A DNA stretch of 64,000 nucleotides from Craspedostauros australis. Taxonomy: Eukaryota. The position numbers and the translations under genes are program-made. Every line of letters starts with the position of its first letter. Position 1 is the first letter of the stretch. Location: NCBI GenBank assembly GCA_030167865.1, contig JALAGF010005657.1, forward strand, positions 1-64,000, in the 5' to 3' direction. Positions 2,288 through 60,271 of this stretch are shown here, piece by piece. The notes below the pieces were generated by a model. The model did no database searches. It saw only the letters and a list, made by a program, of their open reading frames with translations, and was not told the DNA's origin.

Positions 2288-2326
2288 GGTGGTTGGTGTT
2301 GTAACGTGATAAGCTTGGTGGTAGAT

Positions 2327-2340
2327 CACGACTCTTAATC
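2327..2340 (-). promoter_or_regulatory. Primer-binding site complementary to the anticodon stem-loop (about nt 27-40) of tRNA-Lys(CUU)
   Basis: Plus strand reads CACGACTCTTAATC = stem CACGA, CT, anticodon CTT, AA, TC. It directly abuts the LTR end (TGTCA at 2341). A D-loop-like GGTAGA lies at 2320-2325. Confidence 0.75.
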
Positions 2341-2505
2341 TGTCAAAGTGCACAAGTAACTACTGTAGACGTATTGGCCCGTTGTTGCGTGCCCTGGTCG
2401 GAGCTCTTGTTCTTTATTTGTGAGTTGTCCGAGGACAAACCCCCGACCAGTATTTGTGACTAATATGATTAGTAGAGAGGTAAGAAGGTACAGAGAAAGT
2501 TGTCA
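2341..2505 (-). repeat. Putative 5' LTR (~165 bp, TG...CA)
   Basis: Inner end is fixed by the adjacent PBS. Outer end TGACAAC coincides with the stop of the upstream ORF. The segment is AT-richer and has AATAAA on the minus strand (~2413-2418). The second LTR is not in the window, so the outer boundary is inferred. Confidence 0.6.
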
Positions 2506-33084: not shown

Positions 33085-35715
33085 TTATGCCGATCCGGCC
33101 GGTTGTGCCCCTTGGTGAGATTCCATGATGCTGGTGGGAGACTCAGGGATCTTACCTGCCTCTCCTTGCTGCAGATCCGCATCGGGGACAGGGGAGGACC
33201 GAGCATCGGTCTTGCCCTCGCTGCGCTGCTGCTCAGCGGTGTTCTTATTCGAAAGATGCTGCGCCTGGATGGCCGTGAGCGCGATGGTGTATACGATGTC
33301 CTCGACACGAGCTCCACGGCTGAGATCGTTGACGGGACGCTTGAGGCCCTGCAGCATGGGACCGATGGCCACCACGTCGGCAGTACGCTGGACGGCCTTG
33401 TAGGTCGTGTTGCCGGTGTTGAGATCTGGGAAGATCAGCACGGTGGCCTTGCCTGCTACCTGCGAATCTGGAGCCTTGCTCTTCGCCACATCCATCGAAC
33501 TGGCGGCATCGTACTGCAGGGGGCCGTCCATCAGCAAGTCGGGACGGCGGGCCTTGGCGAGCGCGGTGGCCTTGCGCACCTTGTCGACATTGTTGCCGCG
33601 TCCGCTGGTTCCGGTGCTGTAGGAGATCAGGGCAACGCGAGGATCGATGCCAAAGGCCTCGGCAGATTCCGAGCTTTGGAGGGCGATATCGGCAAGCTGC
33701 TCGGCCGTCGGATCAGGGTTGATCGCGCAATCGCCGTAAATCAAGACCTGATCGGGCAGGCACATGAAGAAGATGGATGAGACGATGCTGGCGGAGTCGG
33801 TCGTCTTGATCAGCTGGAGGGCCGGGCGGACGGTGTTGGCGGTGGAATGGTTGGCACCGGAGACCAGTCCATCCACATGCCCATCGGCCAGCATCATGGT
33901 GCCGAGGACAGTGACGTCTTCCAGCTGGTTCATTGCGGACGGCGGTGTCATCCCCTTGTGCTTTCGCAACTCCACCATGCTGTCCACATACTTCTGCCGG
34001 ATCTCCACGCTGGGAGGAAGGATCTCCAGATCGCTGGGGAGAGTCAAGCCCTGGGCTTGCGCAACCCTCGCGATTTCGTCTGGATCTCCAAGCAGGACGC
34101 ATTGGGCGATGCTTCGCTGGTGCGTCAGGCACGCGGCCTTGATGATGCGGGGTTCCTCACCCTCTGGCAGAACGATGCGTTGCGGCCGGGCACGCGCCTG
34201 CGTGACAAGACGGTGCAAGAAGGCAGGCGGGGACATGCGCGGCTGCCGAAGCATGAGCTTGCGGTAGGACTGCGATTGGAACAGCTGCTCGAATGGGCCT
34301 TCGAGGTGATCGGCGATGGAGTTCATCACGTTGCGCATGCGCACGATGTCATCCGGCGGCACAGACGGGTCGACGCTGCCCAGAAGAGCAGAAACGGCGA
34401 AGGAATCCTGCTCGGTGGACAGGATCGGGAGGCCGGTCTTGAATGCGGTCTCGCACAGGTTCCAGATGCTGGGGCTTGGGGAGATGCCTCCGGTAAGCAC
34501 CACGCCTGCCAAGGGCGTTCCGTTGAGCGCTGCCATGCATGCCGCAATGAGCACATCGTCGCGGTCGCCTGGCGTGAGGATGAGAGTGTTGGGCTGCGTG
34601 AGCCTGTGCGCCATGTTCTTGAGGGTCATCGCCACGACGCAGATTTGGGACACGCGGCGGTTGCGGATGTCGCCCTCGTTGAGGATCGTTGCCCTCAGGT
34701 GCTGCTGCACATCGACGGTTCTGGGGTTCGTGAGATTCTCCTTGAAGGGGATCGCACCGAGCAATCGGAACTTGGGGGTGAAGAACGGGCACCGGGCCTG
34801 GATGCGGTCGGACGTCCAGAACTTGGAAAATCGGCGCCTGCCTGGGATGCTGGGCATGCTGGGGTCGACGAGGCTGGGCCTTGGGGTCTTGGCGCAGAAT
34901 GGTGAACAGCGACTGGAGAGCTCTTCCTCTTGGACGGGATCCTTCAGCCCGTTGAGGATGCACCCAAGCACGCGGGGATCCTCCAGACCCCCATAGTGCT
35001 GTGCGATCTGCTCGAGGCGTTCTCTGCAGCGCCTCCACCCGTTCTGTTCTGGGTCTTCGTCGCTGGATTCGCTGGACTCAGTATCGAGCGACGACAGGCT
35101 GGCCCTGGAGTTGCATCTTGGGGGCTGCGCCGAGGGGTCCATGGTGGACACGATGATCACCTCGGCGTCGAGGGCACGCACGACGGCGTGGTTCCATTCC
35201 TCGAGCTCTGGGTGATGGGCGGTGGGTTGCAGGCCTTCGACGATGGCGACATCGCATATCTGCTGGATGTCCTGGAACGAGGCTACGATCTTTTGGAGCA
35301 GCTCGTCGCGACGGCTCGCATCCCACCACAGTTCTTCCGCCTCCTCGAACGGCATGGGGGCTGGGCTTGGGATTCCCAGCTTCGCGATCTTGCGACAAAA
35401 GTGGGTGGAGGTCTCTTCGTTGGGCGCGGCGTTGGCAGCGCTTTGCTTCGCAGTGTCAGCTCCGACGGACTTGGTCACATCGTCTCGAGGAGGCGAGTTG
35501 CGGCGACGATGGTGGCGATGGTTCGAGTGATGCTCAGGTGGCTGGGCCACTGGCTTCCAGAATCCGACGCGGATTCCTTTACGGTCAAGGGCGTGCAGCA
35601 ACCCGAGAGACACGGACGTCAACCCGATGGATGGTCCGGTCGGCACGAGGTAGAGGCTTTCGGCACCGCCATTGCGCGAGTGGTTGCTATCATGCTTGGG
35701 CTCTTCGGTCGTCAT
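33085..35715 (-). CDS. pta: Phosphate acetyltransferase, long class II form (AAA_26-like + DRTGG + PTA_PTB)
   Basis: LVPTGPSIGLTSVSLGL…KPVAQP, TPGDRDDV, RIVLPEGEEPR, DGLVSGANHSTANTVRPALQLIKT and FPDLNTGNTTYKAVQR…GPMLQGLKRPVNDLSRG. Confidence 0.97.
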   Translation of the reverse strand: MTTEEPKHDSNHSRNGGAESLYLVPTGPSIGLTSVSLGLLHALDRKGIRVGFWKPVAQPPEHHSNHRHHRRRNSPPRDDVTKSVGADTAKQSAANAAPNEETSTHFCRKIAKLGIPSPAPMPFEEAEELWWDASRRDELLQKIVASFQDIQQICDVAIVEGLQPTAHHPELEEWNHAVVRALDAEVIIVSTMDPSAQPPRCNSRASLSSLDTESSESSDEDPEQNGWRRCRERLEQIAQHYGGLEDPRVLGCILNGLKDPVQEEELSSRCSPFCAKTPRPSLVDPSMPSIPGRRRFSKFWTSDRIQARCPFFTPKFRLLGAIPFKENLTNPRTVDVQQHLRATILNEGDIRNRRVSQICVVAMTLKNMAHRLTQPNTLILTPGDRDDVLIAACMAALNGTPLAGVVLTGGISPSPSIWNLCETAFKTGLPILSTEQDSFAVSALLGSVDPSVPPDDIVRMRNVMNSIADHLEGPFEQLFQSQSYRKLMLRQPRMSPPAFLHRLVTQARARPQRIVLPEGEEPRIIKAACLTHQRSIAQCVLLGDPDEIARVAQAQGLTLPSDLEILPPSVEIRQKYVDSMVELRKHKGMTPPSAMNQLEDVTVLGTMMLADGHVDGLVSGANHSTANTVRPALQLIKTTDSASIVSSIFFMCLPDQVLIYGDCAINPDPTAEQLADIALQSSESAEAFGIDPRVALISYSTGTSGRGNNVDKVRKATALAKARRPDLLMDGPLQYDAASSMDVAKSKAPDSQVAGKATVLIFPDLNTGNTTYKAVQRTADVVAIGPMLQGLKRPVNDLSRGARVEDIVYTIALTAIQAQHLSNKNTAEQQRSEGKTDARSSPVPDADLQQGEAGKIPESPTSIMESHQGAQPAGSA

Positions 35716-56395: not shown

Positions 56396-57937
56396 CTATT
56401 CAGCTGGCAAACACAGCTTTCGTTCGTCGGAAAACTCGCACAGCCAAAATTCCTGCTTGAAAATATTCCCTGTTCCAGCCACATGAGAAAAGCTGCGATG
56501 CTGTCGTATGAACTCGACCTTTGCCTCCGAAATGGGAAAAGCTCTCTGCGGATTGATGAATGGCCCATTCTTCACGGCTGGGCGTTCGAAGCAGCAGCTG
56601 CTCGTCATCAGGTCCGGCACATCGTGAATCGTCCGTTCTCCATTCAGGTAGGCTTTGTCGTAGTTCTTCTTCCACCGTTGCACCGTGTCCGCAGAGACGT
56701 CTGGAGGGATCGAAAACGGCTGCCCTCGATGAGGAATGATGACTGGTGCGGCATTCTTCTTGGCATGCCTTGGATCAGGTTCTTGTAACGTGTGCCGCAG
56801 GAGGTAGTGTACATTGCGCATATGCGGCAACTCGTCGGACTCCGTGTAGTACACGAAATCGAAGTCGTCCTGGCTATACACGCCTTTCTGAAAGAGCGTC
56901 TTTGCTGTGACCGATGTGCCGTAGGTGATGTGATCAAACGAACGCAGATCCTTCATCAGCTGCACATCGTACAAGTACTGATTGAGACCGCTGTGTTGTG
57001 TGACGTACTCGTAATCCAATGGGTGTCCCACAAACACGGCCACGTTGGGGAATATTGACGCAACAGTCTTGATCGTCATGTTCAAGAACAACTGACTCCT
57101 TCGTTGTGATGGGCCCTTGCTGTCTCCCGCAAAGTACGCCACGATTGCCAATGTGTGCCCGTTCCGTTGTTTTGAGGGGTTGTTGTAGAACTGATTCTGC
57201 TCGTAATCATCCTGCATGACCTCCAGCAGCTTGATGGTATCATTCCGCAGCTCTTCGCCTTTGCCCGTCACCCTCTCGTAGTAGGACAGATGATGCACGA
57301 AGAAATCGAACATGTCCACTGCCTGCAGATTCCAATTGTCGATGCTCATCGCGATGTGACCGTATTCCAGATTGATCTTGTCGGCTGTGAAGAGGTGATC
57401 GGTGGAGATTCGCTCGGTCTTCAGCAAACCGTCAACGGTCGTCAGCCATGCCGCAGAGTAGCCACCACTCCGTTGTTCTCTGGTCATGCCTGCGAATTTC
57501 TCAGTTCTGTTGGTGCCTTCATCGATGGGTGGTACATTCCGTGACGAAGACTGGAAGGTGTTCATATGAACTGTGCCATCCTCCTTGTCATGAAACGAAA
57601 CTCCCCGTCCATTGAGAAGGTCATCCTTGGTGTATCCCACGACGATCCGTTGCGATCTTGGCCCTTGTGCGAAATCATGGATGGTATCGAATGGTGGCAT
57701 CTTGAACATGTCTGACCATCCAGATGGTTGGCTTGATTGTTGCAAGGATGAGTCTGCGATGTGCTGCCACATGGCCGTCGTCATGATGTCGTCATGGACC
57801 TCAAAGATGGCGGACGCAATACGCAGTGACCACAACTGAATGCCGACCACCGCACACGCAAGACCAAGGAGGACCTTGGTAGTTACTCCCATCGGAGGGG
57901 TTTTCTTTGCCTGTCGCTTCAAGCCGGTAGCGTTCAT
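56396..57937 (-). CDS. Type II membrane protein of unknown function (glycosyltransferase-like?), tandem copy A
   Basis: N-terminal TM helix, luminal domain with FVYYTESDE; close paralog of the next gene. Likely ATG at 57937. Confidence 0.8.
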   Translation of the reverse strand: MNATGLKRQAKKTPPMGVTTKVLLGLACAVVGIQLWSLRIASAIFEVHDDIMTTAMWQHIADSSLQQSSQPSGWSDMFKMPPFDTIHDFAQGPRSQRIVVGYTKDDLLNGRGVSFHDKEDGTVHMNTFQSSSRNVPPIDEGTNRTEKFAGMTREQRSGGYSAAWLTTVDGLLKTERISTDHLFTADKINLEYGHIAMSIDNWNLQAVDMFDFFVHHLSYYERVTGKGEELRNDTIKLLEVMQDDYEQNQFYNNPSKQRNGHTLAIVAYFAGDSKGPSQRRSQLFLNMTIKTVASIFPNVAVFVGHPLDYEYVTQHSGLNQYLYDVQLMKDLRSFDHITYGTSVTAKTLFQKGVYSQDDFDFVYYTESDELPHMRNVHYLLRHTLQEPDPRHAKKNAAPVIIPHRGQPFSIPPDVSADTVQRWKKNYDKAYLNGERTIHDVPDLMTSSCCFERPAVKNGPFINPQRAFPISEAKVEFIRQHRSFSHVAGTGNIFKQEFWLCEFSDERKLCLPAE

Positions 57938-58684: not shown

Positions 58685-60271
58685 TCAAGTGGTTGTGCCA
58701 CCTTCTTCAGACGATAGGCACATTTCGCGCTCTGCCGAAAAACGACATGTGAAGAACGATTTCGCGAACACGTCCCCCGTGCCGGCCACATGAGAGAAGC
58801 TGCGGTGCTGCCGTATCAGCTCGACGTCCGACTCGACAAGGGGGAAGAACTTCTGCGGATTGATGAATGGTCCATTCTTTTCGGCTGGGCGTTCGAAGCA
58901 GCAGCTGCTCGTCGTCAGGTCCGGCACATTGTGTATCGTCCGTTTGCCATTCAGGTACGCCACGTCGTAGCTGCTCTTGTGTCCCCTCGCTGTTTTTTCG
59001 GATACATCCGGGGGTATTGAAATCGGCTGTCCTCGATGAGGAATGATGACGGTTGCGGCATTCTTCTGGACATGCCTTTGATCAGGTTCTTGCAACGTGT
59101 GCCGCAGGAGGTAGTGCACATTGCGCATGTGCGGCAATTCATCAGCTTCTGTGTAGTACACGAAATCGAATTCGTCCCTGCTGTACACGCCTTGCTGGAA
59201 ATATGTCTTTGCTGTGACTGTTGTGCCGTAGGTGATGTGACTGAACGAACTCAGATTCTTCATCAGCTGCACATCGTACAAGTACTGATTGAGACCGCTG
59301 TGTTGGGTGACGTACTCGTAATCCAGTGGGTGCCCCACAAATACGGCGACGTTGGGGAATACGGACGCAACAGTCTTTACCGTCATGTTCAAGAACAGGT
59401 GGCTTCTCCGTAACGGCGGACCCTTGCTGTCTCCCGCGAAGTACGCCACGATTGCCAATGTGTGCCCGTTCCGTTGTTTCGAGGGGTTGTTGTAGAACTG
59501 ATTCTGCTCGTAATCATCCTGCATGACCTCCAGCAGCTTGATGGTGTCGTCGCGAAGCGCATCGCTCTTGCCGGTTACCTTCTCGTAGTAGGACAGATGA
59601 TGCACGAAGAAATCGAACATGTCCACTGCCTGCAGATTCCAGTTTCTGAAACTCATCGCGAAGTGGCCAAGCTCCAAGTTGATGTTGCCTTGCACGTACA
59701 GACGATGGGTAGAGATACGGTCAGTCTTCAGCAAGCCGTCAACGGTCGTCAGCCATGCCGCAGAGTAGCCACCACTCCGTTGTTCTCTGGTCATGCCTGC
59801 GAATTTCTCAGTGATATTGGTGCCTTCATCGATGGGTGGTACATTCCGTGACGAAGACTGGAAGGTGTTCATATGAACTGTGCCATCCTCCTTGTCATGA
59901 AACGAGACTCCCCGTCCATTGAGAAGATCGTCCTTGGTGTATCCCACGACAATCCGCTGTGACCTTGGCCCTTGGGTGAAATCATGGACGGTATCGAATG
60001 GTGGCATCTTGAACATGTCTGACCATCCAGATGGTTGGCTTGATTGTTGCAAAGATGAGTCTGCTATGTGCTGCCACATGGCCGTCGTCATGATGTCGTC
60101 ATGGACCTCGAAGATGGCAGATACAAAGCTGAGAGACCATAATTGTGCGCCCACAAGCACGGCCACAAAGCCAAACACAATCTTCAGGATGGGCACAGCT
60201 TGACTGTTCAGACTTGATTGTTGTCGGTTGTCCCGCTGTCTTGGACGATGAGTCGCGTTGTTGGCAGCCAT
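58685..60271 (-). CDS. Type II membrane protein of unknown function (glycosyltransferase-like?), tandem copy B
   Basis: 528-aa ORF, collinear with copy A at an offset of about 2.3 kb; FVYYTEADE. Confidence 0.82.
   Translation of the reverse strand: MAANNATHRPRQRDNRQQSSLNSQAVPILKIVFGFVAVLVGAQLWSLSFVSAIFEVHDDIMTTAMWQHIADSSLQQSSQPSGWSDMFKMPPFDTVHDFTQGPRSQRIVVGYTKDDLLNGRGVSFHDKEDGTVHMNTFQSSSRNVPPIDEGTNITEKFAGMTREQRSGGYSAAWLTTVDGLLKTDRISTHRLYVQGNINLELGHFAMSFRNWNLQAVDMFDFFVHHLSYYEKVTGKSDALRDDTIKLLEVMQDDYEQNQFYNNPSKQRNGHTLAIVAYFAGDSKGPPLRRSHLFLNMTVKTVASVFPNVAVFVGHPLDYEYVTQHSGLNQYLYDVQLMKNLSSFSHITYGTTVTAKTYFQQGVYSRDEFDFVYYTEADELPHMRNVHYLLRHTLQEPDQRHVQKNAATVIIPHRGQPISIPPDVSEKTARGHKSSYDVAYLNGKRTIHNVPDLTTSSCCFERPAEKNGPFINPQKFFPLVESDVELIRQHRSFSHVAGTGDVFAKSFFTCRFSAEREMCLSSEEGGTTT

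Follow-up and report, generated by a model that had tools for sequence, protein, structure and literature searches.

Bases 2–2505 of the minus strand probably belong to a Ty1/copia-type LTR retrotransposon; they make up its 5′ part, and its remainder lies beyond the start of the window. Minus-strand DNA synthesis of the element would start from an internal piece of tRNA-Lys(CUU) in place of a tRNA 3′ end. The two statements are judged likely as a pair, from the sequence and from comparison with relatives. The window is the whole stretch of DNA analysed (64,000 nucleotides of Craspedostauros australis contig JALAGF010005657.1). Half-tRNA priming with a non-Met tRNA is already known in kind. New is a Lys(CUU) user in a clade that is otherwise of Asn, Met and Ser type. 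The element joins a clade of protist Copia elements in which anticodon-arm priming appears to be the rule; primer choice in this clade follows phylogeny, while the apparent cut position (nt 40) stays fixed.

Element layout and coding regions

Features of the element are listed in Table 1. The visible gene order is gag, protease (PR, with LDSGADGD) and the start of integrase (IN). Reverse transcriptase and RNase H lie beyond the window start. Protease followed by integrase is the Ty1/copia order, and the element is therefore read as copia type. The pol frame is open for 302 codons after the TGA that ends gag. The PR–IN region is 49% identical to that of P0052, a 1322-aa protein (Pfam: RVT_2) that continues with IN and RVT_2. 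P0052 and P0001, encoded on one contig of 5877 nt, represent the closest relative. A chromodomain suspected by eye in P0052 was rejected, as Pfam reports RVT_2 only.

Table 1. Features of the 5′ part of the element (positions in the window)
Feature	Position	Strand	Description
Candidate 5′ LTR	2341–2505	minus	165 nt; TGACAAC...CACTTTGACA; TG..CA ends and imperfect terminal inverted repeat
AATAAA	2418→2413	minus	Within the candidate LTR
Core of the putative primer-binding site (PBS)	2327–2340	minus	GATTAAGAGTCGTG; complement of the tRNA-Lys(CUU) anticodon arm, nt 27–40 (CACGA-CTCTTAA-TC)
Second box	2313–2326	minus	ATCTACCACCAAGC, with TCTACC at 2325→2320; D-arm-complement-like, 2 nt out of register with the core
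gag ORF	908–2287	minus	459 aa; ATG at 2287; stop TGA at 910→908, then C
Start of pol	2–907	minus	Same frame as gag; protease LDSGADGD and first part of integrase; ends at the window start

The Gag of the window has no Pfam match at E ≤ 0.01. A word-indexed search for near-length Gag homologues gave 6605 candidates, none of them at E ≤ 1e-3; exhaustive phmmer at the same threshold gave 51 distant relatives, with a best identity of 26%. Retrotran_gag_2 (copia-type Gag) was matched by 11 of 16 scanned Gag relatives at E ≤ 0.01, five above the Pfam curated cut-off.

Neither a second copy of the element nor another LTR or solo LTR was found in the window; the 3′ LTR falls beyond base 1, and related elements are about 6 kb long. 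tRNA genes were not detected in the window (ARAGORN; Rfam gathering), and an Rfam E-value scan of 2250–2400 gave one chance miRNA match (E = 5). The candidate LTR end at 2341 is a putative boundary, for which the comparative support comes from the relatives. The candidate 5′ end at 2505 is suggested by the TG..CA ends and the imperfect terminal inverted repeat.

Putative primer-binding site

On the minus strand the LTR-like end ...CTTTGACA (last base 2341) is directly adjoined by the 14-nt core, 53 nt before the gag ATG. Upstream of gag this strand reads ...GTGCACTTTGACA, then GATTAAGAGTCGTG, ATCTACCACCAAGC, ... ATG. On the plus strand, positions 2313–2340 read GCTTGGTGGTAGATCACGACTCTTAATC, followed by TGTCAAAG from 2341; CACGACTCTTAATC stands at 2327–2340 and GGTAGA at 2320–2325, and the LTR-like CA is at 2342–2341 (minus). 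TGG does not occur on the minus strand between 2340 and the gag ATG at 2287, so that a conventional PBS is absent. The preliminary description had reported this absence of a canonical TGG after the CA, and had read the minus strand right after the CA as the complement of CACGA-CT-CTT-AA-TC; both readings were confirmed, the second at 2340→2327.

The complement of the 14-mer comprises the 5′ stem strand of an anticodon arm, its loop of seven bases, which includes U33 and the CUU anticodon, and nt 39–40. The predicted arm bases allow stem pairs 31–39 (A–U) and 30–40 (G–C). A Lys(UUU) primer was rejected because the site reads AAG (anticodon CUU), not AAA. Also rejected was a tRNA gene fragment at the insertion site: the stretch that resembles a tRNA belongs to the element and is placed, like its counterparts in the relatives, between LTR and gag. 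A search of both strands of the window with ≤2 mismatches finds the 14-mer at this place alone, but one match or more at that stringency also turns up in 35 of 100 shuffles; the single occurrence is not significant in itself, and the evidence is carried by position and register.

Match to tRNA-Lys(CUU)

A 17-mer, composed of the 14 site bases and the three bases that close the predicted stem, was scanned against viral_contigs. Three matches were found, all inside tRNA-Lys(ctt) genes (L001–L003; ARAGORN). One of these genes is on a contig of a giant-virus bin, and the remaining two are on other viral contigs. tRNA-Lys(CUU) with precisely this arm thus occurs in nature; the genes that serve as proxies are viral-contig genes and may be neither the host's nor eukaryotic. 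The host tRNA-Lys(CUU) would be expected to carry the same arm. Among the 79 related loci described below (best 80 of at least 497), tRNA genes were not found.

The element matches nt 27–40 of the proxy tRNAs (14 nt) without interruption. Position 26 is unpaired, and the bases next to the core, opposite nt 24–26, do not pair. The base before the site is A, and G41 of the proxy tRNAs would need C. Complementarity stops exactly at nt 40, so a fragment cut after C40 is the most likely reading.

A 16-mer, composed of CA and the site, also had three matches in viral_contigs. The loci of 5.4–6 kb around them contain no tRNA gene, and the 121 bases around each show no LTR-like context; on these two grounds the matches were taken as chance.

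Related loci and their primer sites

Relatives were sought by a metagenome scan with 28 Gag-Pol relatives of P0052, which yielded at least 601 stretches and at least 497 confirmed relatives. The sample consists of 79 loci (best 80 of at least 497), many of them fragments, all counted in the 79. A metagenome scan with the PR–IN pair (A1) gave 505 pattern stretches and no relatives, and viral_contigs searched with Gag, P0052 and A2 gave no related locus. Metagenomes and a transcriptome set of marine protists are the sources of the nearest relatives. In long matches the PR–IN of related loci is 25–35% identical to that of the window.

A site of common format, GATT followed by the reverse-complemented anticodon and A, after ...CA, AC or TA, was found in 23 of the 79 loci (best 80 of at least 497). 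Since GATT was a requirement of the motif search, the common AAUC end partly reflects how the sites were selected. The sites are of three types: Asn(GUU), GATTAACAG/A, in 16 loci (L015, L020, L022, L024, L025, L027, L030–L036, L039, L044, L045); Met(CAU), GATTATGAGAC, initiator and elongator not distinguished, in 6 loci (L010, L011, L012, L014, L040, L052); Ser(GCU), GATTAGCAG, in 1 locus (L016). Near-duplicate pairs are L031/L032, L034/L035 and L024/L039. Motif matches were dropped if inside the polyprotein match or not preceded by CA, AC or TA (L007:1423, L019, L023, L024:2262, L028, L029:1080, L030:1852, L033:13629, L036:1331 and 1775, L038, L039:4305, L040:2226, L055, L056, L057, L060:3328, L066, L083). 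L016:6366 was set aside as a repeat of L016:56 in the terminal overlap of the contig. The Lys(CUU) site ATTAAGAGT was found on the coding strand of none of the 79 loci (best 80 of at least 497).

The window element and these metagenome Copia elements (L010–L052) have in common a short LTR, the site format, and gag within about 30–100 nt; they differ in primer type, Asn(GUU), Met(CAU) or Ser(GCU) in the relatives and Lys(CUU) in the window. An ATG that opens a long ORF stands 29–101 nt after the site in 20 of the 23 loci. In the loci with two LTRs (L024, L032, L033, L034, L052) the site starts ≤1 nt from the LTR end, as fixed by the 3′ LTR. Their LTRs are 107–221 nt long, with similar imperfect terminal inverted repeats. 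The placement in these five relatives is the best available support for the 2341 boundary. L009 is the closest in PR–IN among the loci with DNA, at 35% identity; it lacks both an LTR pair and a recognisable PBS.

Some variant sites were observed. In the more distant L068 (121–135) and L084 (after the repeat end), GTTTATCAGACCC follows an LTR-like ...ATCA; as an arm it corresponds to GAU with AAAC at nt 37–40. In L029 (101–115), GATTGACTTCTG follows an LTR end ...CTGAC, starts like the clade sites and has T at the complement of U33; L029 falls inside the Asn clade on the PR–IN tree. Contigs L016, L022, L030, L062 and L064 (exact) and L058 (96% identical), about 6 kb in size, carry the same 123 or 127 bases at both ends. 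These repeated ends look like assembly overlap of circular or tandem forms, not LTRs.

PR–IN phylogeny

The PR–IN tree comprises 20 rows: the window, P0052 and 18 loci, which were chosen for having ≥200 aligned residues and lacking a stop, to the exclusion of the other loci. The Asn clade has 13 rows (10 of Asn type, 3 with no assigned PBS type; support 100/99). The second clade has 7 rows: the Met trio, L016 (Ser) with L009, and the window with P0052 (support 100/99). The grouping of the window with P0052 has the same support, 100/99. Branches are long and the root is arbitrary, and the order of switches is not readable from the tree. Primer type, as predicted from the sites, tracks relatedness on this tree. 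Given the same site format in 23 of 79 loci and its placement at LTR ends, priming from a tRNA fragment ending at nt 40 looks like a trait of the clade, with the window element as its Lys(CUU) user.

gag–pol junction

Six relatives from the Asn clade (L020, L024, L030, L032, L033, L034) share with the window a gag that is closed by an in-frame TGA followed by C, with pol continuing in the same frame. In L012, L014 and L016, which are of Met or Ser type, gag and pol are fused into one ORF. The in-frame TGA-C looks like a conserved site of stop-codon readthrough, not decay. Since the junction of the window is the same as in the six relatives, the copy is not obviously decayed at this point.

Second box

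GGTAGA matches nt 18–23 of the three proxy tRNAs, 2 nt out of register with the core. With position left free, the score of this match is reached by 285 to 686 of 2000 shuffles (three proxy tRNAs). For pairing with the proxy tRNA half, a duplex energy of −38.2 kcal/mol is predicted (core alone: −20.8). When the bases downstream are shuffled, 43 of 1000 shuffles score as low. The second-box match of the window element is only weakly significant, as tested against the proxy tRNAs. Among the relatives, 4 of 21 distinct elements (L030, L032, L033, L044) have TCTACC 9–50 nt beyond the first base of the site; its background in the same loci is 0.78% of 42-nt windows (1011 of 129,484), and the binomial P of the enrichment is 2e-5. 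In L032 and L044 it stands within a 16-base stretch, GTTCTACCAAC[TA][GA]AGC, which by eye resembles the D-arm complement of the proxy tRNAs. The D-arm box is recurrent, not universal, in the relatives; in the window it is directly next to the core. The D-loop-like GGTAGA that had been noted beyond the core is thus present at 2320–2325, off register by 2 nt and not significant when its position is free.

Proposed priming mechanism

In the predicted element RNA, the 14 nt directly after U5 would pair with tRNA nt 27–40, a duplex that would extend over the 5′ half of the anticodon stem, all of the CUU-bearing loop, and U39–C40. A tRNA cut after C40 would pair at 2340→2327, with its 3′-OH facing the last base of the LTR. 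Copying would begin with TGTCA..., and these bases would become the end of the LTR. The primer would be an RNA ending ...CUCUUAAUC, joined to the complement of U5. The D arm of this fragment may in turn pair with the second box (TCTACC...), 1 nt further on. The annealed fragment would prime minus-strand strong-stop DNA. Cleavage of the tRNA after nt 40 and its use as the primer are the presumed steps; a link to regulated tRNA cleavage or to host stress nucleases is speculation.

A 5′ half of tRNA-Lys(CUU) ending at about nt 40 was the primer proposed in the preliminary description. That proposal is supported in part, by a site format and position as in 23 loci, the LTR-end placement in five relatives, the tRNA-Lys(ctt) genes that carry the arm, and the published nt-40 position. 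Its weak part is the D-loop match, 2 nt off register and only weakly significant.

A wider rule for the clade is conceivable, though doubtful. Any tRNA with an arm ending A37-A38-U39-C40 would be a possible primer after a cut behind C40, the choice would have switched among at least Asn, Met, Ser and Lys, and the D-arm box would help to hold the 5′ fragment. Under such a rule the shared AAUC would be either a sequence-specific cleavage mark or a requirement of the reverse transcriptase, and the Lys(CUU) element would be a fresh switch, usable for testing the rule. Expression of pol through UGA-C readthrough would be a further trait that makes the clade unusual among Copia elements.

Alternative explanations

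The resemblance to tRNA-Lys(CUU) might be due to chance, the element being primed otherwise, for example by Tf1-like self-priming or by an unrecognised primer. This is regarded as quite improbable. The uniqueness of the 14-mer is weightless in the argument, given the shuffles (35 of 100 with a match at ≤2 mismatches), the Lys site is present in 0 of the 79 related loci (best 80 of at least 497), and the tRNA with the exact arm is known from viral-contig proxies, not from the host's own genes. Against chance stand the exact format, the register (end at nt 40) and the position, all common to the sites of 23 relatives, the three independent 17-mer matches, which are without exception tRNA-Lys(ctt) genes, and the lack of a TGG-type PBS before gag. 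The more-than-chance reading rests on position and register, on the format of the relatives, and on the 17-mer matches in tRNA-Lys(ctt) genes. As for self-priming, a complement of the site with ≤2 mismatches is not found elsewhere in the window, so that Tf1-like pairing with the transcript 5′ end is unavailable. Decay is unlikely too, although somewhat less so. The site would then be a relic of a formerly used tRNA-Lys half or other tRNA of the clade, the copy or family would now be immobile, and the match to the present host tRNA would be imperfect. The single partial copy in the window and the unpaired bases adjoining the core (nt 24–26 of the proxy tRNAs) are compatible with this; gag (459 aa) and the visible 302 pol codons are nevertheless open, the 14-nt core is uninterrupted, and the only stop in frame, TGA-C, is no random one, as six relatives conserve it at their gag–pol junction.

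Very improbable is a role other than priming, in which the site would bind tRNA-Lys(CUU) or its fragments for packaging or for silencing by tRNA fragments, and the true primer would pair elsewhere. tRNA fragments that target primer sites are described for 3′ fragments, and diatom small-RNA fragments cover the D loop and anticodon of 9 tRNAs (PMC4247016). The Lys CTT row of Table S3 of the same source carries no pattern flag, in a species that may differ from the host and with PDF columns that are uncertain. There is no other candidate PBS between the LTR end and gag, and in the relatives with two LTRs the site adjoins the LTR end, a placement that priming requires if the LTR is to be restored. 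Priming by the tRNA-Lys(CUU) fragment is preferred.

Comparison with known systems

In hemiviruses the cDNA starts from the 3′-OH of tRNA nt 40, within the anticodon stem (PMC1181622). Hemivirus-type elements (Drosophila copia, yeast Ty5, Osser, 1731) have directly after the 5′ LTR, as the window element does after its candidate LTR, a PBS that is complementary to the anticodon stem-loop and not to the tRNA 3′ end (PMC8515867). Both are of Ty1/copia type, with the primer 3′-OH at nt 40 (PMC1181622), as predicted for the window. The window has an anticodon-arm complement ending at nt 40 (tRNA-Lys(ctt) L001–L003, viral-contig proxies) and no TGG before gag. Hemivirus-type elements use initiator tRNA-Met, whereas the window site has a CUU (Lys) anticodon; this comparison covers the priming site and the element type.

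In the FunCo1 Copia elements of Pezizomycotina the PBS is ATTAAGAGTCT, directed at an internal stretch of tRNA-Lys (Donnart et al. 2017, PMC5445492). By comparison of the PBS motif alone, it uses the same part of the same tRNA species as the window site; ATTAAGAGTC is shared, 10 of 11 printed bases. The stem bases differ, ..GTCT in FunCo1 and ..GTCGTG in the window, and the FunCo1 hosts are fungi. Such a difference in stem bases is expected if each element follows the tRNA of its own host. Fungal Copia and Helenus families have Tyr, Ile, Asp, Asn and iMet anticodon-arm primers, with repeated switches (PMC10886601). These families and Candida albicans LTR elements resemble the present clade (Asn, Met, Ser, Lys) in non-Met anticodon-arm primers and in switching; they belong to other hosts and clades, and Lys(CUU) is absent from their listed primers. 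The novelty implied by the term non-Met in the preliminary description does not hold, as Arg, Tyr, Ile, Asp and Asn tRNAs are already in print as internal primers, and so is a Copia PBS against internal tRNA-Lys.

A printed statement on anticodon-arm priming in diatom or other protist Copia elements was not found by a full-text search that excluded supplements and subscription journals. Maumus 2009 (PMC2806351) does not use the term 'tRNA' at all, and its single 'PBS' denotes a wash buffer. In Phaeodactylum tricornutum, fragments of about 19 nt over the D loop and anticodon of 9 tRNAs, outside the standard classes, are on record (PMC4247016). They are a possible comparison for half-tRNA primers.

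The known understanding of the mechanism of half-tRNA priming is unchanged by the Lys(CUU) site. The clade offers a natural set of primer switches for the questions of what selects the tRNA and what makes the cut. In annotation, PBS finders limited to tRNA 3′ ends miss such elements.

Other features of the window

Direct repeats are present at 56459–56993 and 58766–59300. They are 2307 nt apart and 81–87% identical, and lie within neighbouring minus-strand ORFs of 588 and 528 aa, neither of which has a Pfam match. The repeats are probably a tandem gene duplicate. An 876-aa phosphate acetyltransferase (AAA_26, DRTGG and PTA_PTB) is encoded at 33085–35715 (minus). Its nearest atlas clusters, among those listed, are all bacterial; the rest of the window is eukaryote-like.
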